A stretch of 64,000 bases of DNA, from the NCBI RefSeq assembly GCF_055900595.2, contig NZ_CM148325.1; one strand, 5' to 3'. The notes beneath the pieces were generated by a model, which saw nothing but the letters and a program-made list of their open reading frames with translations, did not search any database and was not told where the DNA came from. This document shows positions 3,876-45,497 of the stretch, piece after piece. The stretch's first letter is position 1. Each line of letters opens with the position of its first letter. Both the position numbers and the translations under genes were made by a program.

Positions 3876-4018
3876 GAAACGGGAAAGCCCCTCCCGAGGA
3901 AGGGGCCTTAAATAAGGAAAGGGTCATGATGAAGTGGATCATCATCGTGGTGCTCTTAGTCGTTAGCTACCCAGCTTACTAAGACTACCAGGGCGGGGGA
4001 AACCCCGCTCAACCCTCA
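3876..4018 (-). ncRNA. sib: Sib-family antisense sRNA (antitoxin), copy 1; ends approximate
   Basis: Reverse-strand promoter: -35 TTGACA (4053..4048), 17-bp spacer, -10 TATTTT (4030..4025). Fully antisense to ibs copy 1. Hairpin 3887..3907 plus U-rich tract on the minus strand is the candidate terminator. Confidence 0.6.
3926..3982 (+). CDS. ibs: Ibs-family type I toxin peptide, copy 1 (MMKWIIIVVLLVVSYPAY)
   Basis: 18-codon hydrophobic ORF with ATGATG start and RBS-like aggaaagg upstream, inside the first 328-bp tandem repeat. Matches Ibs toxin family features. Confidence 0.75.
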   Translation: MMKWIIIVVLLVVSYPAY

Positions 4019-4203
4019 CTCCTGAAAATATGCCTTCACGGTCAGAATGTCAATCCGCAGGCTTTGCAGTCTGCGATCCTGCCAGCAAATATTCTTTGCG
4101 AGTCGTTACGCAATAATCACAGATGAAACTATTTTATCTACGCGTTAGCGATAGACTGCATTCAGGGCAAAAGGAGGTAGGCCGACGATTTCAGCGGGAC
4201 GCT

Positions 4204-4346
4204 GAAACGGGAAAGCCCCTCCCGAGGAAGGGGCCTTAAATAAGGAAAGGGTCATGATGAAGCTACTCATCATCGTGGTGCTCTTAGTCATTAGCTTACC
4301 GGCTTACTAAGACTACCAGGGCGGGGGAAACCCCGCTCTACCCTCA
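4204..4346 (-). ncRNA. sib: Sib-family antisense sRNA, copy 2; ends approximate
   Basis: Reverse-strand -35 TTGACA at 4381..4376 with -10 TACTTT at 4358..4353 (17-bp spacer). Antisense to ibs copy 2. Confidence 0.55.
4254..4310 (+). CDS. ibs: Ibs-family type I toxin peptide, copy 2 (MMKLLIIVVLLVISLPAY)
   Basis: Same architecture as copy 1, displaced exactly 328 bp. Confidence 0.75.
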   Translation: MMKLLIIVVLLVISLPAY

Positions 4347-4531
4347 CTCCTGAAAGTATGCTTTCACAATCAGATTGTCAATCCGCAGGCTTTGTAGTCT
4401 GCGATCCTGCCAGCAAATATTCTTTGCGAGACGTTACGCAATAATCACATGTGAAACTATTTTATCTGCAAGTTAGCGATAGACTGCTTGCATGGCGAAA
4501 GGAGGTAGGCCGCCGATTTCAGCGGGACGCT

Positions 4532-4675
4532 GAAACGGGAAAGCCCCTCCCGAGGAAGGGGCCTTAAATAAGGAAAGGGTCATGATGAAGCTACTCATCA
4601 TCGTGGTGCTCTTAGTTATTAGCTGGCCAGCTTACTAAGACTACCAGGGCGGGGGGAAACCCCGCTCTACCCTCA
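4532..4675 (-). ncRNA. sib: Sib-family antisense sRNA, copy 3; ends approximate
   Basis: Reverse-strand -35 TTGACA at 4710..4705; weaker -10 (TAACTT). Antisense to ibs copy 3. Confidence 0.5.
4582..4638 (+). CDS. ibs: Ibs-family type I toxin peptide, copy 3 (MMKLLIIVVLLVISWPAY)
   Basis: Third repeat unit, 328 bp after copy 2; same start context. Confidence 0.75.
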   Translation: MMKLLIIVVLLVISWPAY

Positions 4676-4856
4676 CTCCTGAAGTTATGTTACTCCACCC
4701 TTATTGTCAATCTGTAAGTCCACGTTCTTGCGGGGCGAATAGCAAAACCCTCTGCGCTTATGGGCCGAATTCTGAAAGTTGCTTTGCCTGCTCTTATTTC
4801 ATTGTTGCAGTCGGTATGATACCGGACCTCAATAATTCTCTAAGAAAGGATTTCTT

Positions 4857-18686: not shown

Positions 18687-20270
18687 TCACACCTCGTACT
18701 CCATCTCGCCATCCTTATGCAGCGGAATAATCTGCACCTTCTGCACGCGATGGCTTTCCACCTGCAACGTTTTAAGCAAATAATCCCCCACCTGAACTTC
18801 TTCGCCAGGTTTTGGAATACGCTGTAAATATTCCATCAACAGCCCGGCAATGGTGTGATATTCACGTTTTTCATCCAGCGGCAGCGGCACATATTGCACC
18901 AGATCTTCCAGCGGCATATGACCATTCGCCGTCCAGGAACCGTCGGCATTCTTCTGAATATCATGGCGGGCGTCGATCTCTTCCACTTCGTTCGGTAAGT
19001 TACCGGCAATGGTTTCAGTGACGTCACTTAATGTCACAATCCCTTCCACCGAGCCAAACTCATCCACCACAAAAGCAAAGTGTGTGCGGGCATTACGGAA
19101 CTGCTCCAGGGCAGGTAACAACGGTAAAGTTTCCGGGAACACCAGCGGTTGGCGAATCAACACCCGCAGGTTGAGCGGTTCGCCGCGCAGTGACTGTTGT
19201 AACAGGTCGATAACGTGAACGACACCGAGCAAATCTTCTGCATCATCGCCGTCGGTAACGACCAGACGCGTGTGCTGATTTCGCTCCAGCAGCTGGCGGA
19301 TCTCCTCTTCTGGCGCGTTGAGATCGATATGCTCAATATCGTGGCGCGACGTCATGATGCTGCTGACAGTACGCTGGTTAAGATTAAGTACCCGCTCAAT
19401 CATCCGCCGTTCCTGCGGATTAAAGATCTGCTGGTTACCATGATCCACCAGCATGGACGCGGTTTCGGCATCCAGTTCCGCATCTTCTTTTTGCCCGCTA
19501 AGCAGGCGCATTACCGCTTCGGTAGTCCGCTGGCGCAGTGTCTGGTTAGCGGAAAGAAAACGTCGCCGGTTAAAGATAGCCAACTGATTGAGCGCCTCGA
19601 TCATCACCGAGAAACCAATGGCAGCATACAGATAGCCTTTCGGAATGACGAAGCCGAAACCTTCCGCCACCAGGCTAAAGCCAATCATCAACAGGAAACT
19701 TAGGCAGAGTATGACGATGGTCGGGTGACTGTTAACAAATTGCGTTAACGGCTTGCTTGCCATCAGCATCAGGCTGATCGCGATAACAACGGCGGCCATC
19801 ATGACCAGTAAATGGTCGACCATCCCGACGGCAGTAATCACCGAGTCAAGTGAGAAGATGGCGTCCAGTACCACAATTTGCGTCACCACGCCCCAGAACT
19901 TCGCACCTTTGCGTTGCGTGGGGTTATTGCTGTCTTTCCCCTCCAGCCGTTCGTTCAACTCCATCGTGGCTTTGAACAGCAGGAAGAAACCACCAAACAG
20001 CATGATTAAGTCGCGGGCGCTAAAGGTAAACGAGCGGAAGCTGAACAGTGGTTGAGTCAGGGTGACCAGCCAGGAGATTGACGCCAGCAGTAACAGGCGC
20101 ATTAACATTGCCAGCAGCAGCCCGGTAACCCGTGCGCGGTCGCGCTGCTTCGGCGGTAGTTTTTCGGCGAGGATGGCAATAAAGACCAGGTTATCAATGC
20201 CGAGGACCAGTTCGATCACAATCAGCGTGATTAACCCGGCCCAGATAGACGGATCGGCAATCCATTCCAT
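18687..20270 (-). CDS. yegH: TerC-family membrane protein with CBS/CorC domains YegH (527 aa)
   Basis: Track ORF 18687..20336 trimmed to ATG at 20270 ([18 protein letters not shown]...). Confidence 0.88.
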
Positions 20271-20511
20271 AGTAAGTACAAAACCTATTCGTTGTATGAC
20301 AAATGTCACAATTCGATCATGGATAAATCGGGGCAAAAATGCAATGTTGCAGCACTATTTATCTCATATTATTTGAGGTTTATAACCTCACATTATCCCT
20401 GAATTAAAAGTGGTAATAATAAAACATTATTTAAGAAATATCGCATGTGGAGACACTATATTAAATATTGTCAACCTAAAGAAACTCCTAAAAACCATAT
20501 TGAATGACACT

Positions 20512-20525
20512 TAATATAATTCTTA
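20512..20525 (+). promoter_or_regulatory. Candidate RcsAB box upstream of wza
   Basis: taatataattctta matches about 10 of 14 positions of the RcsAB-box consensus as I recall it; position about 400 bp upstream of wza is plausible. Confidence 0.3.
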
Positions 20526-20710
20526 AAAATAGCCAATTGCCGAATTGTTACCTTGCCTGCTATTCCGTTAGCTGTAACACTTCCTCCTGCATTATGGGAA
20601 GCCAATATTCAATTACCATAATGCCACCTTATATCTGGAAAATTAATTCACGGAATAACGCTTTTTCATAATCAACTGCATGATGAAAGAGTTAGAAAAT
20701 CTAAACTAAA

Positions 20711-20750
20711 TCAGTGTATTGGTAGCTAAAAAGCCAGGGGCGGTAGCGTG
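20711..20750 (+). promoter_or_regulatory. JUMPStart element with ops site (GGCGGTAGCGTG at 20739..20750) in the wza leader
   Basis: Exact ops motif; cagtg...ggtagc...ggcggtagcgtg arrangement typical of RfaH-dependent polysaccharide operons. Confidence 0.8.
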
Positions 20751-20928
20751 TCTGGACGCCTGAGAGACCAGTCTGAATTATTCTGTCAATAGCCTGCGGA
20801 TGAAATCAATTTTTTTAGGACTGATGCCAGTTAAATTTTTATTCAATTAACTGCAAGGTAAATGTGCATGGCGACATTGCTATTAATAGTGCACAGGATA
20901 ATTACTCTGCCAAAGTGATAAATAAACA

Positions 20929-22068
20929 ATGATGAAATCCAAAATGAAATTGATGCCATTATTGGTGTCAGTAACCTTGATAAGCGGTTGCACAGTACTT
21001 CCGGGCAGCAATATGTCGACGATGGGTAAAGACGTCATCAAACAGCAGGATGCTGATTTCGATCTCGACAAAATGGTGAATGTTTATCCGCTGACCCCGC
21101 GCCTGATTGATCAATTACGCCCACGACCCAACGTCGCGCGCCCCAATATGACGCTGGAAAGCGAGATTGCCAATTATCAATATCGTGTCGGGCCGGGCGA
21201 CGTTCTTAATGTCACCGTCTGGGATCACCCGGAACTCACCACTCCAGCTGGTCAGTACCGCAGCTCCAGCGACACCGGCAACTGGGTACAGCCTGACGGC
21301 ACTATGTTCTACCCGTATATCGGCAAGGTTCACGTGGTGGGGAAAACGCTCGCTGAAATCCGCAGTGATATTACCGGGCGCTTAGCGACGTACATCGCTG
21401 ACCCGCAGGTGGACGTTAATATCGCCGCCTTCCGCTCGCAAAAAGCCTATATCTCCGGTCAGGTGAATAAATCCGGTCAACAGGCGATCACCAACGTACC
21501 ATTGACCATTCTCGACGCCATTAACGCCGCAGGTGGCCTGACCGATACCGCTGACTGGCGCAACGTGGTGCTAACACACAATGGTCGTGAAGAACGCATT
21601 TCTTTGCAGGCGCTGATGCAAAACGGCGACCTCAATCAGAACCGACTGCTTTACCCCGGCGATATTCTCTACGTGCCGCGTAATGATGATCTGAAAGTAT
21701 TTGTGATGGGTGAAGTGAAGAAACAGAGCACCCTGAAAATGGACTTTAGCGGCATGACCCTGACTGAAGCCCTGGGCAATGCTGAAGGCATCGACATGAC
21801 CACCTCCAACGCCAGCGGCATCTTTGTCATTCGTCCGCTGAAAGGCGAGGGCGGGCGTAACGGCAAGATTGCCAATATCTATCAGCTGGATATGTCCGAT
21901 GCCACGTCGCTGGTGATGGCGACAGAATTCCGCCTGCAGCCTTATGACGTGGTGTATGTCACCACCGCTCCGGTTTCCCGCTGGAACCGTCTGATCAATC
22001 AGTTGCTGCCAACTATTAGCGGTGTCCGTTACATGACGGATACAGCCAGCGACATTCATAACTGGTAA
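20929..22068 (+). CDS. wza: Outer membrane polysaccharide export lipoprotein Wza (379 aa)
   Basis: ATGATG start at 20929; lipoprotein signal [21 protein letters not shown]. Confidence 0.95.
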
Positions 22069-35285: not shown

Positions 35286-35366
35286 GAAACCGCGGTGTAA
35301 ATAACGACAAATATAAAATTGGCCGTTTCGGTCAGGGCCAACTATTGCCTGAAAAAGGGTAACGAC

Positions 35367-36737
35367 ATGAAAAAATTAACCTGCTTTAAAGCCTATGATA
35401 TTCGTGGAAAATTAGGCGAAGAACTGAATGAAGATATTGCCTGGCGCATTGGTCGCGCTTATGGCGAATTTCTCAAACCGAAAACCATTGTGTTAGGCGG
35501 TGATGTCCGCCTCACCAGCGAAACCTTAAAACTGGCGCTGGCGAAAGGTTTACAGGATGCGGGCGTCGATGTGCTGGATATTGGCATGTCCGGCACCGAA
35601 GAGATCTATTTCGCCACGTTCCATCTCGGTGTGGATGGCGGCATTGAAGTTACCGCCAGCCATAATCCGATGGATTATAACGGCATGAAGCTGGTGCGCG
35701 AAGGGGCTCGCCCGATCAGCGGTGATACCGGACTGCGCGATGTCCAGCGTCTGGCAGAAGCCAACGACTTTCCTCCCGTTGATGAAACCAAACGCGGTCG
35801 CTATCAGCAAATCAATCTGCGTGACGCTTACGTTGATCACCTGTTCGGTTATATCAACGTCAAAAACCTCACGCCGCTCAAGCTGGTGATCAACTCCGGG
35901 AACGGCGCAGCGGGTCCGGTGGTGGACGCTATCGAAGCCCGCTTTAACGCCCTCGGCGCTCCGGTGGAATTAATCAAAGTGCACAACACGCCGGACGGCA
36001 ATTTCCCCAACGGTATTCCTAACCCGCTGCTGCCGGAATGCCGCGACGACACCCGCAATGCGGTCATCAAACACGGCGCGGATATGGGCATTGCCTTTGA
36101 TGGCGATTTTGACCGCTGCTTCCTGTTTGACGAAAAAGGGCAGTTTATCGAAGGCTACTACATTGTCGGCCTGCTGGCAGAAGCGTTCCTCGAAAAAAAT
36201 CCCGGCGCGAAGATCATCCACGATCCACGTCTCTCCTGGAACACCGTTGATGTGGTGACTGCCGCTGGCGGCACGCCGGTGATGTCGAAAACCGGACACG
36301 CCTTTATTAAAGAACGTATGCGCAAGGAAGACGCCATCTACGGTGGCGAAATGAGCGCCCACCATTACTTCCGTGATTTCGCTTACTGCGACAGCGGCAT
36401 GATCCCGTGGCTGCTGGTCGCCGAACTGGTGTGCCTGAAAGATAAAACGCTGGGCGAACTGGTACGCGACCGGATGGCGGCGTTTCCGGCAAGCGGTGAG
36501 ATCAACAGCAAACTGGCGCAACCCGTTGAGGCGATTAACCGCGTGGAACAGCATTTTAGCCGTGAGGCGCTGGCGGTGGATCGCACCGATGGCATCAGCA
36601 TGACCTTTGCCGACTGGCGCTTTAACCTGCGCTCCTCCAACACCGAACCGGTGGTGCGGTTGAATGTGGAATCGCGCGGTGATGTGCCGCTGATGGAAGC
36701 GCGAACGCGAACTCTGCTGGCGTTGCTGAACGAGTAA
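35367..36737 (+). CDS. cpsG: Phosphomannomutase CpsG/ManB (456 aa)
   Basis: ATG at 35367 ([14 protein letters not shown]...); track ORF used an upstream TTG. Active-site context TASHNP. Confidence 0.95.
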
Positions 36738-38187: not shown

Positions 38188-39666
38188 ATGAGCTTACGTG
38201 AAAAAACCATCAGCGGCGCGAAGTGGTCGGCGATTGCCACGGTGATCATCATCGGCCTCGGGCTGGTGCAGATGACCGTGCTGGCGCGGATTATCGACAA
38301 CCACCAGTTCGGCTTGCTGACTGTGTCGCTGGTAATCATCGCGCTGGCAGATACGCTTTCTGACTTCGGTATCGCTAACTCCATTATTCAGCGAAAAGAA
38401 ATCAGTCACCTGGAACTTACCACGTTGTACTGGCTGAACGTCGGGCTGGGGCTTGTGGTGTGCGTGGCGGTGTTTTTGTTGAGTGATGCCATTGGTGACG
38501 TGCTGAATAACCCGGACCTAGCACCGTTGATTAAAACATTGTCGCTGGCGTTTGTGGTGATCCCCCACGGGCAGCAGTTCCGCGCGTTGATGCAGAAGGA
38601 GCTGGAGTTCAACAAAATCGGCATGATCGAAACCAGCGCGGTGCTGGCGGGCTTCACTTTTACGGTGGTTAGCGCCCATTTCTGGCCGCTGGCGATGACC
38701 GCGATCCTCGGTTATCTGGTCAATAGTGCGGTGAGAACGCTGCTGTTTGGCTACTTTGGTCGAAAAATTTATCGCCCCGGTCTACATTTCTCGCTGGCGT
38801 CGGTGGCACCGAACTTACGCTTTGGTGCCTGGCTGACGGCGGACAGCATCATCAACTATCTCAACACCAACCTTTCAACGCTGGTGCTGGCGCGTATTCT
38901 CGGCGCGGGCGTGGCAGGGGGCTACAACCTGGCTTACAACGTGGCCGTTGTGCCGCCGATGAAGCTGAACCCCATCATCACCCGCGTGTTATTTCCGGCA
39001 TTCGCCAAAATTCAGGACGACACCGAAAAGCTGCGCGTGAACTTCTACAAGCTGCTGTCGGTGGTGGGGATTATCAACTTTCCGGCGCTGCTCGGGCTGA
39101 TGGTGGTGTCGAATAACTTTGTACCGCTGGTCTTTGGTGAGAAGTGGAACAGCATTATTCCGGTGCTGCAATTGCTGTGTGTGGTGGGTCTGCTGCGTTC
39201 CGTAGGTAACCCGATTGGTTCGCTGCTGATGGCGAAAGCGCGGGTCGATATCAGCTTTAAATTCAACGTATTCAAAACCTTTCTGTTTGTTCCGGCGATT
39301 GTTATTGGTGGGCAGATGGCGGGCGCAATCGGCGTCACGCTCGGTTTCCTGTTGGTGCAGATTATCAACACCATTCTGAGTTACTTCGTGATGATTAAAC
39401 CGGTTCTTGGTTCCAGTTATCGCCAGTACATCCTGAGTTTGTGGCTGCCGTTTTATCTCTCGCTGCCGACGCTGGTGGTCAGTTATGTGCTGGGCATTGT
39501 GCTGAAAGGGCAACTGGCGCTGGGGATGCTGCTGGCGGTGCAAATAGCCGCGGGCGTGCTGGCGTTTGTGGTGATGATTGTGCCGTCGCGCCATCCGCTG
39601 GTGGTGGAAGTGAAGCGTCAGTTTTGTCGCAGCGAAAAAATGAAAATGCTTTTACGGGCGGGGTGA
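38188..39666 (+). CDS. wzxC: Colanic acid repeat-unit flippase WzxC (492 aa)
   Basis: Polytopic membrane protein; synteny. Confidence 0.92.
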   Translation: MSLREKTISGAKWSAIATVIIIGLGLVQMTVLARIIDNHQFGLLTVSLVIIALADTLSDFGIANSIIQRKEISHLELTTLYWLNVGLGLVVCVAVFLLSDAIGDVLNNPDLAPLIKTLSLAFVVIPHGQQFRALMQKELEFNKIGMIETSAVLAGFTFTVVSAHFWPLAMTAILGYLVNSAVRTLLFGYFGRKIYRPGLHFSLASVAPNLRFGAWLTADSIINYLNTNLSTLVLARILGAGVAGGYNLAYNVAVVPPMKLNPIITRVLFPAFAKIQDDTEKLRVNFYKLLSVVGIINFPALLGLMVVSNNFVPLVFGEKWNSIIPVLQLLCVVGLLRSVGNPIGSLLMAKARVDISFKFNVFKTFLFVPAIVIGGQMAGAIGVTLGFLLVQIINTILSYFVMIKPVLGSSYRQYILSLWLPFYLSLPTLVVSYVLGIVLKGQLALGMLLAVQIAAGVLAFVVMIVPSRHPLVVEVKRQFCRSEKMKMLLRAG

Positions 39667-39694: not shown

Positions 39695-40172
39695 GCCGGG
39701 TGCAGCGTAAAACGCCTTATCCATCCTACGGTTCTGTGCTCGGGACCTGTAGGCCTGATAAGACGCGTCAGCGTCGCATCAGGCACTGAATGCCGGATGC
39801 GGTGTGAACGCCTTATCCGGCCTACGGTTCAGGGCTTGGATCTTGTAGGCCCGATAAGACGCGCCAGCGTCGCATCAGGCACTGAATGCCGGATGCGGCG
39901 TAAAACGCCTTATCCGGCCTACGGTTCTGTGCTCGGGTCTTGTAGGCCTGATAAGACGCGCCAGCGTCGCATCAGGCACTGAATGCCGGATGCGGCGTGA
40001 ACGCCTTATCCATCCTACGGTTCTGTGCTCGGGACCTGTAGGCCTGATAAGACGCGTCAGCGTCGCATCAGGCACTGAATGCCGGATGCGGCGTGAACGC
40101 CTTATCCGGCCTACGGTTCTGTGCTTGGATCTTGTAGGCCTGATAAGAGGCGTCAGCGTCGCATCAGGCAAA
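39695..40172. repeat. Large BIME array: about five tandem units (period about 94-101 bp) of alternating REP palindromes
   Basis: Repeated gcctgataagacgcg...cgtcgcatcaggc and gccggatgcggcg...gccttatccggcctacgg units between wzxC and wcaK. Confidence 0.85.
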
Positions 40173-40230: not shown

Positions 40231-41511
40231 ATGAAATTACTTATTCTGGGCAACCACACTTGCGGCAATCGTGGCGACAGCGCCATCCTGCGCGGCTTAC
40301 TTGATGCCATCAACATCCTCAATCCACAAGCCGAAGTGGACGTGATGAGCCGCTATCCGGTCAGTTCTTCCTGGCTGCTCAACCGCCCGGTAATGGGTGA
40401 TCCGCTGTTCCTTCAAATGAAACAACACAACAGCGCGGCGGGCGTTGTCGGGCGCGTTAAAAAAGTCCTCCGTCGCCGCTATCAGCACCAGGTACTGCTC
40501 TCGCGCGTCACCGACACTGGCAAGCTGCGTAATATCGCCATCGCCCAGGGATTCACCGACTTCGTGCGCCTGCTGTCAGGTTACGACGCCATTATCCAGG
40601 TCGGCGGATCGTTTTTTGTCGATCTCTATGGCGTGCCGCAGTTTGAACATGCACTTTGCACGTTTATGGCGAAAAAGCCGCTGTTTATGATTGGTCACAG
40701 TGTTGGCCCGTTCCAGGATGAGCAATTTAACCAACTGGCGAACTATGTTTTTGGTCACTGTGACGCGCTGATCCTGCGCGAATCGGTCAGCCTTGATTTG
40801 ATGAAACGCAGCAATATCACCACTGCAAAAGTGGAACATGGCGTCGATACTGCGTGGCTGGTCGATCACCACACCGAAGATTTCACCGCCAGCTATGCCG
40901 TCCAACACTGGCTGGACGTTGCCGCACAACAGAAAACGGTGGCAATTACCCTGCGCGAACTGGCACCGTTCGACAAACGTCTCGGCACCACTCAACAAGC
41001 GTATGAAAAAGCCTTTGCCGGGGTGGTCAATCGCATTCTCGACGAAGGCTATCAGGTTATTGCGCTCTCCACCTGTACGGGTATCGACAGCTATAACAAA
41101 GACGACCGCATGGTGGCGCTCAACCTGCGCCAGCACATCAGCGATCCTGCCCGTTACCACGTAGTGATGGATGAACTCAACGATCTGGAAATGGGCAAAA
41201 TTCTCGGAGCCTGTGAACTCACCGTCGGTACGCGCCTGCACTCCGCCATTATCTCAATGAACTTTGCTACTCCGGCGATTGCCATCAATTATGAACATAA
41301 ATCCGCCGGGATTATGCAGCAGCTGGGACTACCGGAGATGGCAATTGATATCCGTCATTTATTAGACGGCAGCCTGCAAGCGATGGTTGCGGATACCTTA
41401 GGCCAGCTTCCGGCGCTGAACGCACGACTTAGCGAAGCCGTCAGTCGTGAGCGTCAGACGGGAATGCAGATGGTGCAGTCCGTACTGGAACGCATCGGGG
41501 AGGTGAAATGA
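40231..41511 (+). CDS. wcaK: Colanic acid pyruvyltransferase WcaK (426 aa)
   Basis: ATG at 40231; synteny and length. Confidence 0.9.
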   Translation: MKLLILGNHTCGNRGDSAILRGLLDAINILNPQAEVDVMSRYPVSSSWLLNRPVMGDPLFLQMKQHNSAAGVVGRVKKVLRRRYQHQVLLSRVTDTGKLRNIAIAQGFTDFVRLLSGYDAIIQVGGSFFVDLYGVPQFEHALCTFMAKKPLFMIGHSVGPFQDEQFNQLANYVFGHCDALILRESVSLDLMKRSNITTAKVEHGVDTAWLVDHHTEDFTASYAVQHWLDVAAQQKTVAITLRELAPFDKRLGTTQQAYEKAFAGVVNRILDEGYQVIALSTCTGIDSYNKDDRMVALNLRQHISDPARYHVVMDELNDLEMGKILGACELTVGTRLHSAIISMNFATPAIAINYEHKSAGIMQQLGLPEMAIDIRHLLDGSLQAMVADTLGQLPALNARLSEAVSRERQTGMQMVQSVLERIGEVK

Positions 41512-44133: not shown

Positions 44134-44307
44134 ATTTGCGACCATTCCTGGAAAAATGGAGCCATACTTAGGAACAATGCTACTGCAATCCACAACGAAG
44201 CGGCGTAACATCACAAGTAATTCAGTAATCAATTCAGGGTAATTGATGCTGGCGAAAAAAATCGAACAAGCTATAATTCAGCAACCATTTTACAGGTGGA
44301 TGAAATA

Positions 44308-45201
44308 ATGACGAATTTAAAAGCAGTTATTCCTGTAGCGGGTCTTGGGATGCATATGTTGCCTGCCACTAAGGCGATTCCCAAAGAGATGCTACCGATC
44401 GTCGACAAGCCAATGATTCAGTACATTGTTGACGAGATTGTGGCTGCAGGGATCAAAGAAATCCTCCTGGTAACTCACGCGTCCAAGAACGCGGTCGAAA
44501 ACCACTTCGACACCTCTTATGAATTAGAATCTCTTCTTGAGCAGCGCGTGAAGCGTCAACTGCTTGCGGAAGTGCAGTCCATCTGTCCACCGGGCGTGAC
44601 CATTATGAACGTGCGTCAGGGCGAACCTTTAGGTTTAGGCCACTCCATTTTATGTGCACGACCCGCCATTGGTGACAATCCATTTGTCGTGGTGCTGCCA
44701 GACGTTGTGATCGACGACGCCAGCGCCGACCCGCTGCGCTACAACCTTGCTGCCATGATTGCACGATTCAACGAAACGGGTCGTAGCCAGGTGCTGGCAA
44801 AACGTATGCCGGGTGACCTCTCTGAATACTCGGTCATCCAGACCAAAGAACCACTGGACCGTGAAGGTAAAGTCAGCCGCATTGTTGAATTTATCGAAAA
44901 ACCGGATCAGCCGCAGACGTTGGACTCAGACATCATGGCCGTTGGTCGCTATGTGCTTTCTGCCGATATTTGGCCGGAACTTGAATGCACGCAGCCAGGT
45001 GCATGGGGGCGTATTCAGCTGACTGATGCCATCGCTGAACTGGCGAAAAAACAGTCCGTTGATGCCATGCTGATGACAGGTGACAGCTACGACTGCGGTA
45101 AAAAAATGGGTTATATGCAGGCATTTGTGAAGTATGGACTACGCAACCTGAAAGAAGGGGCGAAGTTCCGTAAAGGGATTGAGAAGCTGTTAAGCGAATA
45201 A
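44308..45201 (+). CDS. galF: UTP-glucose-1-phosphate uridylyltransferase-like regulatory subunit GalF (297 aa)
   Basis: ATG at 44308 ([28 protein letters not shown]...); track ORF used an upstream GTG. Confidence 0.93.
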
Positions 45202-45458: not shown

Positions 45459-45497
45459 CAGTGCACTGGTAGCTGTAAAGCCTGGGGCGGTAGCGTG
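45459..45497 (+). promoter_or_regulatory. JUMPStart element with ops site (GGCGGTAGCGTG at 45486..45497) for the O-antigen operon
   Basis: Near-identical to the wza-leader JUMPStart at 20711..20750. Confidence 0.8.

Follow-up and report, generated by a model that had tools for sequence, protein, structure and literature searches.

The RcsAB box has the consensus TaAGaatatTCctA, as quoted in PMC4325325, and reviews and structural papers print this consensus without the wza site (PMC4325325 for the consensus). Two RcsAB boxes, including the one termed box1, are located upstream of E. coli rcsA (PMC11879457), and at Klebsiella pneumoniae galF (cps P1) the footprinted RcsAB box is TAAGATTATTCTCA (PMC3438125, citing Wehland & Bernhard, 2000). 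For the RcsB box of flhDC P1, the sequence TAGGAAAAATCTTA and the pattern TN(G/A)GAN4TC(T/C)NA have been given (PMC7913699).

The described system closest to the DNA studied here is the wza region of E. coli K-12 MG1655, which is the same locus with the same gene order. To our knowledge, one RcsAB box has been described at the wza promoter. The K-12 cps (wza) promoter was reportedly studied by Stout 1996 (J Bacteriol 178:4273), and Wehland & Bernhard 2000 (J Biol Chem 275:7013) is said to contain RcsAB box work including wza.

In this study, the region upstream of wza was analysed within a window of 64,000 nucleotides, the whole stretch of DNA under consideration. The locus is very probably the standard, already-known control region of the colanic-acid (cps/wca) operon, and is called ordinary because it has essentially the same sequence as its K-12 counterpart. 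An earlier note had proposed an Rcs/RfaH-type control region for this operon, which was broadly right, all of the elements being identical in K-12; since the arrangement is the textbook one for colanic acid, the finding was real and recognised correctly in outline, without novelty. The only mildly new reading is a conserved architecture of three boxes.

The yegH-wza region and its predicted promoter

Gene order in the window is K-12-like (asmA, yegH, the colanic-acid cluster, galF, the O-antigen cluster, gnd, ugd, wzz and his). The yegH gene, of the TerC family according to RefSeq, lies on the - strand with its ATG at 20270, and the ATG of wza is at 20929. The window is E. coli DNA, and identity across 20270-20940 is 100% with strain M160133 and 95-96% with K-12-type strains. 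The gap and the gene downstream of it are as follows.

20271..20928, no strand given: yegH-wza intergenic region, 658 bp of non-coding, AT-rich DNA, from the ORFs and the RefSeq annotation of M160133
20929..22068, + strand: wza, first gene of the colanic-acid operon, a 379-aa ORF; in RefSeq the identical gene is named Wza, with wzb and wzc next in order

GC content is 25-39% across 20300-20950 compared with 50-60% in the adjoining genes, in agreement with the AT-rich character previously claimed for the DNA upstream of wza.

Loci in other Enterobacteriaceae were fetched via their Wza gene (n=80), and for a phylogenetic footprint the region upstream of ops was aligned in 75 loci from around 20 enterobacterial genera, with per-position counts on 76 sequences. 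The genera in the alignment include Escherichia, Citrobacter, Salmonella, Enterobacter, Lelliottia, Kosakonia, Phytobacter, Atlantibacter, Siccibacter, Trabulsiella, Cedecea and Buttiauxella. Four blocks (20468-93, 20510-29, 20552-59 and 20568-81) are near-invariant in the 75 loci, and the DNA in between is not. The two blocks nearest to wza hold the following predicted promoter features.

20553..20558, + strand: predicted -35 hexamer TTGCCT, within CTTGCCTG (20552-20559), which is invariant in 73-76 of 76 sequences
20573..20581, + strand: predicted extended -10, TG-T-AACACT (TG 20573-20574, AACACT 20576-20581)
20568-20581: conserved island of the -10 region, TTAGCTGYAACAAT
20588..20589, + strand: predicted transcription start, placed from the -10 position; conservation collapses directly downstream

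The conserved segment 20553-20581 is thus predicted to be a weak extended -10 sigma-70 promoter with a 17-bp spacer. The TTG of the -35, the TG, A(-11) and T(-7) are shared by 75-76 of the 76 sequences, and most genera have AACAAT where the window has AACACT. TTGCCT-17-AACACT agrees with the sigma-70 consensus at 7 of 12 positions, plus the TG, in E. coli and at 8 of 12 in most genera. A generic consensus scan of the region for promoters and terminators found none, the TTGCCT/AACACT pair included; its silence on the promoter is attributable to there being only 7-8 of 12 consensus positions, which fits a strictly activator-dependent promoter. The -10 and -35, which the earlier note could not place with confidence, are both positioned (as predictions) by the footprinting. 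Many genomes carry a PGAP-annotated 49-aa 'hypothetical protein' over the promoter, which is taken as spurious. A full-text literature search with the candidate start-site coordinates returned nothing relevant.

Since the comparative data put the conserved promoter at 20553-20581, the leader would be about 340 nt long, not 590. The leader of about 590 bp first described for this region therefore holds as a non-coding, AT-rich gap (658 bp in all), of which only some 340 nt would be leader and the remainder promoter and upstream DNA. With +1 predicted at 20588, which corresponds to K-12 2137584, ops would lie at +152 to +163 and the three candidate boxes, (c), (b) and (a), would be centred at around -70, -105 and -150.

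Candidate RcsAB boxes upstream of the promoter

Three box-like sequences precede the predicted promoter, each coinciding with an island of conservation.

20432..20445, + strand: box (a), TAAGAAATATCGCA, a conserved pseudo-palindrome of RcsB type, at about -150 relative to the predicted start
20468..20493, + strand: block (b), TTGTCAACCTAAAGAAACTCCTAAAA, with the box frame at 20477-20490 reading TAAAGAAACTCCTA, about -105 from the predicted start
20510..20529, + strand: block (c), CTTAATATAATTCTTAAAAA, holding at 20512-20525 the box TAATATAATTCTTA of the earlier note, about -70
20432-20445: cross-genus island (a), consensus TAGGAWATATCGCA, a conservation island exactly box-sized (14-15 bp)
20468-20493: cross-genus island (b), TTGTCAAYATMAAKAAAWTCCTAAAA, near-invariant in 76 sequences
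20510-20529: cross-genus island (c), CTTAATATTAWTCTTAAAAR, near-invariant across genera

The resemblance to an RcsAB box first pointed out at 20512-20525 is real, box (c) matching TaAGaatatTCctA at 10 of 14 positions (4 mismatches), though no better than chance by itself. When the intergenic region was scanned with TaAGaatatTCctA, no site was found at up to 3 mismatches, and a limit of 4 mismatches gave 3 matches, compared with an expectation of 1.5 from shuffles (p~0.24). The likeness of box (c) is by itself no evidence because shuffled AT-rich DNA gives as many matches. It is the conservation across genera, together with the fixed spacing, that lifts box (c) above chance. Positions 20511-20528 are more than 90% conserved at 16 of 18 positions (76 sequences), the exceptions being 20513 (87%) and the A/T-variable 20520, and among the three boxes (c) is the most strongly conserved. 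Box (c) is centred some 70 bp before the predicted start, and its distance from the -35 (30-31 bp) is fixed in 68 of 68 loci; 59 loci have 31 bp and nine have 30 bp between block (c) and the -35 anchor.

The best three + strand matches to the consensus in the intergenic region are boxes (b), (c) and (a), which fall on the three conserved islands. Box (a) has all six upper-case consensus positions (T1, A3, G4, T10, C11 and A14), yet 5 mismatches overall; of 70 anchored loci, 50 have at its position a site fitting TN(A/G)GA-N4-T(C/T)NNA, with 36-38 bp from there to the TGTCAA anchor of block (b) downstream. Box (b) departs from the consensus at 4 positions; its right half, TCCTA, is perfect. Box (c) has T1, A3, T10, C11 and A14 and departs from the most-conserved positions at position 4 only, where 70 of 76 sequences, those of Escherichia among them, have T in place of G. 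The presumed bona fide sites themselves carry consensus mismatches, three in the Klebsiella galF box and four in TAAGGATTATCCGA upstream of rcsA, the latter being presumably a published RcsAB box. Boxes (b) and (c) of wza share with the second rcsA box a signature, TC[CT][TG]AAAA, which recurs at two places upstream of yjbE, an Rcs-regulated gene, and may be read as an RcsB half-site plus an A-tract.

Spacing is equally regular. Block (b) is followed by block (c) at 35-36 bp in every scored locus, and the -35 and -10 anchors are 18 bp apart, with a 17-bp spacer in 68 of 68 loci scored. The distance between the -10 and ops anchors is variable (155-192 bp). Rigid box and promoter spacing followed by a variable -10-to-ops distance is the pattern of a putative phased activator-promoter module and, beyond it, an unconstrained transcribed spacer.

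The comparative data support box (c) as a putative operator-like element, and it is probably a genuine RcsAB-type site. The chance that it is also the published wza box falls just short of even. All three boxes are identical in MG1655, so whichever site was footprinted in K-12 is also present unchanged here. Among the papers searched in full text, none prints the 14-mers of the three wza boxes on either strand.

A competing assignment, to which we give somewhat less than an even chance, is that the published footprinted box is (b) at 20477-20490 or (a) at 20432-20445, and that (c) is a secondary site for RcsAB, RcsB or another factor. Box (a) alone has all of the most-conserved consensus positions (T1, A3, G4, T10, C11, A14); it also fits the RcsB pattern TN(G/A)GAN4TC(T/C)NA with one deviation and lies on a conservation island exactly the size of a box. 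Box (b), with its perfect TCCTA right half, equals (c) in its match to the consensus, and far-upstream RcsAB sites have a precedent at about -170 of rcsA. Against this assignment, box (c) is the nearest of the three to two reported RcsAB-bound sites (11-12 of 14 positions for galF, and a 12-mer shared with rcsA box1), is the most strongly conserved, and stands closest to the promoter at a rigid distance.

It is quite unlikely that block (c) is instead the wza -10, with TATAAT at 20515-20520 as the hexamer, a start at about 20527, a leader of about 400 nt and 20546-20590 as leader RNA. The hexamer is perfect, the want of a recognisable -35 would be expected of an activator-dependent promoter, and boxes (b) and (a) would then fall at about -44 and -89. 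However, TATAAT occurs in three Escherichia sequences only; the other genera have TATTAA (43 of 76, without the critical final T) or, for the remainder, TATTAT, while the whole 20-bp block is still invariant. Downstream, TTGCCT-17-TGnAACAAT keeps its -11A, -7T and TG invariant, and immediately beyond it conservation falls away, as is characteristic of a start site. TATAAT was therefore rejected as the -10, being an Escherichia-only variant within an otherwise invariant block.

That sequence (c) is a chance resemblance in AT-rich DNA with no regulatory role, as its 4 consensus mismatches and the equally frequent matches in shuffles might suggest, is hardly credible against a block that is near-invariant over about 20 genera while its flanks diverge, stands at a fixed distance from the promoter, and has a 12-mer in common with the DNA upstream of rcsA that was reached in only 4.8% of shuffles.

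The three boxes, held at rigid spacing and centred near -150, -105 and -70, raise the possibility, put at somewhat less than an even chance, that colanic-acid activation might need a multi-dimer RcsA-RcsB nucleoprotein complex and not a single heterodimer. This suggestion follows from the presence of three boxes at fixed spacing in around 20 genera, from the (b)/(c) pair mirroring the two-box layout of rcsA, and from the occurrence of the TC[CT][TG]AAAA signature at rcsA and yjbE as well.

JUMPstart, ops and the wza leader

Downstream of the predicted start, the transcribed region would comprise the following features.

20592..20708, + strand: early leader, variable, a rare allele; unconserved across genera and variable in length
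20712..20750, + strand: JUMPstart element, 39 bp (Rfam RF01707, 57.3 bits, E=2.3e-12, model positions 1-38 of 38)
20739..20750, + strand: ops GGCGGTAGCGTG, exact, on the non-template strand, about +152 to +163 from the predicted start
20776..20928, + strand: distal leader, conserved at about 20776-20838 and about 20880-20928, the middle being less conserved

The exact ops claimed at 20739..20750 was confirmed on the + strand; GGCGGTAGCGTG on the wza-coding strand is an exact copy of the 12-nt ops GGCGGTAGnnTG. The JUMPStart-like element that had been described around it proved to be a full-length match to RF01707 in an Infernal search, above the gathering score of 35. The only other ops copy in the 64-kb window is at 45486-45497, and a second JUMPstart (RF01707, 49.6 bits) was found at 45459-45497, between galF and the O-antigen genes; at up to one mismatch, the window holds 2 ops matches against 0.30 expected. 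JUMPstart is conserved in all genera examined; of 80 related loci, 75 carry GGCGGTAG ahead of wza at a distance of about 190 bp. In the window, 179 bp separate the ops from the wza ATG, and the predicted promoter lies about 150 bp upstream of the ops, which would thus be in the transcribed leader.

Almost all differences from K-12 fall within the early leader at 20592-20708. Of 4818 E. coli genomes, only 11 are at least 99% identical across 20585-20715, and 4780 are 80-90% identical there. The allele is closest to that of E. whittamii (94%, compared with 83% for K-12).

Conservation is strong in the distal leader and extends over the last 40 nt ahead of the wza ATG. The hairpins predicted by RNAalifold in the leader were limited to those of JUMPstart and ops and an invariant one at 20901-20919 in the distal part; they showed no covariation or compensatory changes in the alignment. 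An upstream ORF, from an ATG at 20800 or 20824 to a TAA at 20850, was considered and rejected as unconserved, with a stop in Salmonella and ATG changed to ATA in several genera. No Shine-Dalgarno sequence was found within 20 nt of the wza ATG. RfaH helps couple translation, and a wza gene lacking a Shine-Dalgarno sequence fits such a role.

Sequence, conservation, spacing and K-12 identity, all of them observed, can be joined in the following scheme. Three putative RcsAB/RcsB-type boxes stand at fixed spacing before a predicted weak sigma-70 promoter. With the Rcs phosphorelay on and RcsA stable, RcsA-RcsB would bind to boxes, which of them being a matter of prediction, and RNA polymerase would be recruited; the position of the -70 box is compatible with class-I-type activation. 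Transcription would begin near 20588, a start site inferred from the promoter, and would proceed through about 150 nt of unconstrained leader before RNA polymerase pauses at JUMPstart/ops. RfaH, on which dependence is predicted from the ops, would then load on the exposed non-template ops, and the modified complex would resist Rho-dependent termination and silencing over the 23-kb operon. RfaH would probably also aid the translation of wza, in view of its missing Shine-Dalgarno sequence.

The strain retains an intact and presumably Rcs/RfaH-controlled colanic-acid operon, and the region otherwise matters little beyond annotation. Useful by-products of the comparison are a comparative promoter map (the placement of -35 and -10, and a leader of about 340 nt), the recognition that three RcsAB-like boxes, not one, are kept at fixed spacing, and a strongly conserved distal leader without a Shine-Dalgarno sequence.

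Comparison with known systems

Box (c) agrees with the Klebsiella galF box TAAGATTATTCTCA at 11 of 14 positions, or 12 of 14 for the TAATATTATTCTTA variant found in Phytobacter, Kosakonia and others. Klebsiella galF has the same genomic position as Pwza, divergent from yegH, as seen in a K. quasipneumoniae locus identified via its YegH ortholog, in which the published galF box is present (L084 4421-4408). However, the Klebsiella yegH-galF intergenic DNA is GC-rich and cannot be aligned with the AT-rich wza region, the module of box plus TTGCCT/AACAAT is absent, and JUMPstart lies at a separate promoter before wzi. Orthology of the wza and Klebsiella galF promoters was rejected, since the intergenic DNA is not alignable, and for the same reason the likeness between galF and box (c) is one of site type.

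Compared with the RcsB pattern (PMC7913699), wza box (a) fits save for one base, whereas boxes (b) and (c) have the TC(T/C)NA half but are without the G of the left half-site. The missing left-half G in (b) and (c) would fit a half that is bound by RcsA rather than RcsB.

The 12-mer TTAATATAATTC is identical at the position of K-12 rcsA box1 (PMC11879457) and at wza box (c), and 20 of 25 aligned bases match between rcsA and box (c). At rcsA, box1 is followed after 34 bp by the second box, TAAGGATTATCCGA, an arrangement like that of the wza (b)/(c) pair, which is about 35 bp apart. In both promoters an A-tract comes after the right half-site, the sequences being TCCGAAAAA at rcsA and, at wza, TCTTAAAAA and TCCTAAAAA. 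The two box types come in opposite order in the two genes, and the boxes lie around 140-170 bp from the start at rcsA compared with a predicted -70 and -105 or so at wza.

With respect to the JUMPstart/ops of O-antigen and other RfaH-dependent operons (RF01707), the wza element is a full-length covariance-model match with an identical 12-nt ops, and shows no notable difference; here some 150 nt of leader precede the ops, and about 180 nt separate it from the first codon.

Compared with K-12 itself, the 117-bp early-leader patch at 20592-20708 is about 83% identical, and scattered single-base differences are found outside it (e.g. 20379, 20381, 20539, 20551, 20757 and 20764). All the elements discussed above are base-for-base identical in MG1655, namely boxes (a), (b) and (c) at 2137727-40, 2137682-95 and 2137647-60, the -35/-10 at 2137591-619, and JUMPstart with ops at 2137422-60.

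The leader of wza

The early part of the wza leader (20592-20708) is a rare, mosaic allele. It shares around 83% identity with K-12 between flanks that are near-identical to K-12, and just 11 out of 4818 E. coli genomes carry it at 99% identity or higher. Its nearest relative is found in Escherichia whittamii, which suggests that recombination brought a short segment into a spacer not under constraint. Some of the approximately 600 genomes lacking a match are explained by a natural loss of this entire region; in E. coli KE51 (NZ_CP141080.1) a deletion has removed the colanic-acid cluster from wza through most of wcaL, and IS1 directly adjoins yegH.

In some 20 genera both ends of the distal leader (20776-20928) are strongly conserved, and the 40 nt upstream of the wza ATG belong to the conserved part. 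Despite this conservation no Shine-Dalgarno sequence precedes the wza ATG, and no covariation was seen across 20776-20928. The distal leader contains the following:

20817-20820 and 20895-20898, AGGA motifs
20901-20919, invariant hairpin AUUACU-CUGCCAA-AGUGAU

The yegH side and the opposite strand

Further features were recognized on the yegH side of the wza control region or on its opposite strand:

20152-20159, in the yegH coding sequence and antisense to yegH, 8-mer GGCGGTAG, the ops core minus its terminal TG
20295-20310, minus strand (reverse complement), CRP-like palindrome TGTGACATTTGTCATA
20317-20345, minus strand (reverse complement), candidate yegH promoter TTGCAT-17-CATGAT
20471-20605, minus strand, 49-aa 'hypothetical protein' WP_162829205.1 annotated by PGAP (337-486 in locus L086)

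The candidate promoter, which is conserved in Klebsiella too, is likely that of yegH, and the palindrome lies just downstream of it. The 8-mer occurs in Escherichia and Salmonella loci as well and is probably a coding-sequence coincidence. WP_162829205.1, annotated by PGAP in many E. coli genomes, overlaps the predicted wza promoter and its RcsAB-like boxes on the opposite strand, and probably represents a spurious ORF call.

Other RNA elements and the O-antigen JUMPstart

Elsewhere in the window, further RNA elements were identified:

3911-4053, 4239-4381 and 4567-4710, minus strand, three tandem copies of SIB RNA (Sib antitoxin), 136-140 bits each
35313-35362, plus strand, algC RNA motif
39752-40111, minus strand, four naRNA4/REP-type matches in the colanic-acid cluster
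45459-45497, second JUMPstart (RF01707, 49.6 bits)

The naRNA4/REP-type matches lie within the gap between the ORFs at 38188-39666 and 40231-41511. ORF 35319-36737 is listed with a TTG start at 35319, which the algC motif overlaps; its real start may be further downstream. The second JUMPstart, which follows galF (44296-45201) and precedes the O-antigen gene cluster, contains an exact ops at 45486-45497 and is expected to be the RfaH site of the rfb operon.

Likeness to the yjbE upstream region

ATCCTAAAA occurs twice upstream of the Rcs-regulated yjbE of K-12 (343-359 and 481-495 in locus L087), one copy forming TGAGGTTAATCCTA, with four mismatches to the RcsAB consensus. This pair bears the same half-site-plus-A-tract signature as wza boxes (b) and (c), at 20477-20490 and 20512-20525, and the second rcsA box.
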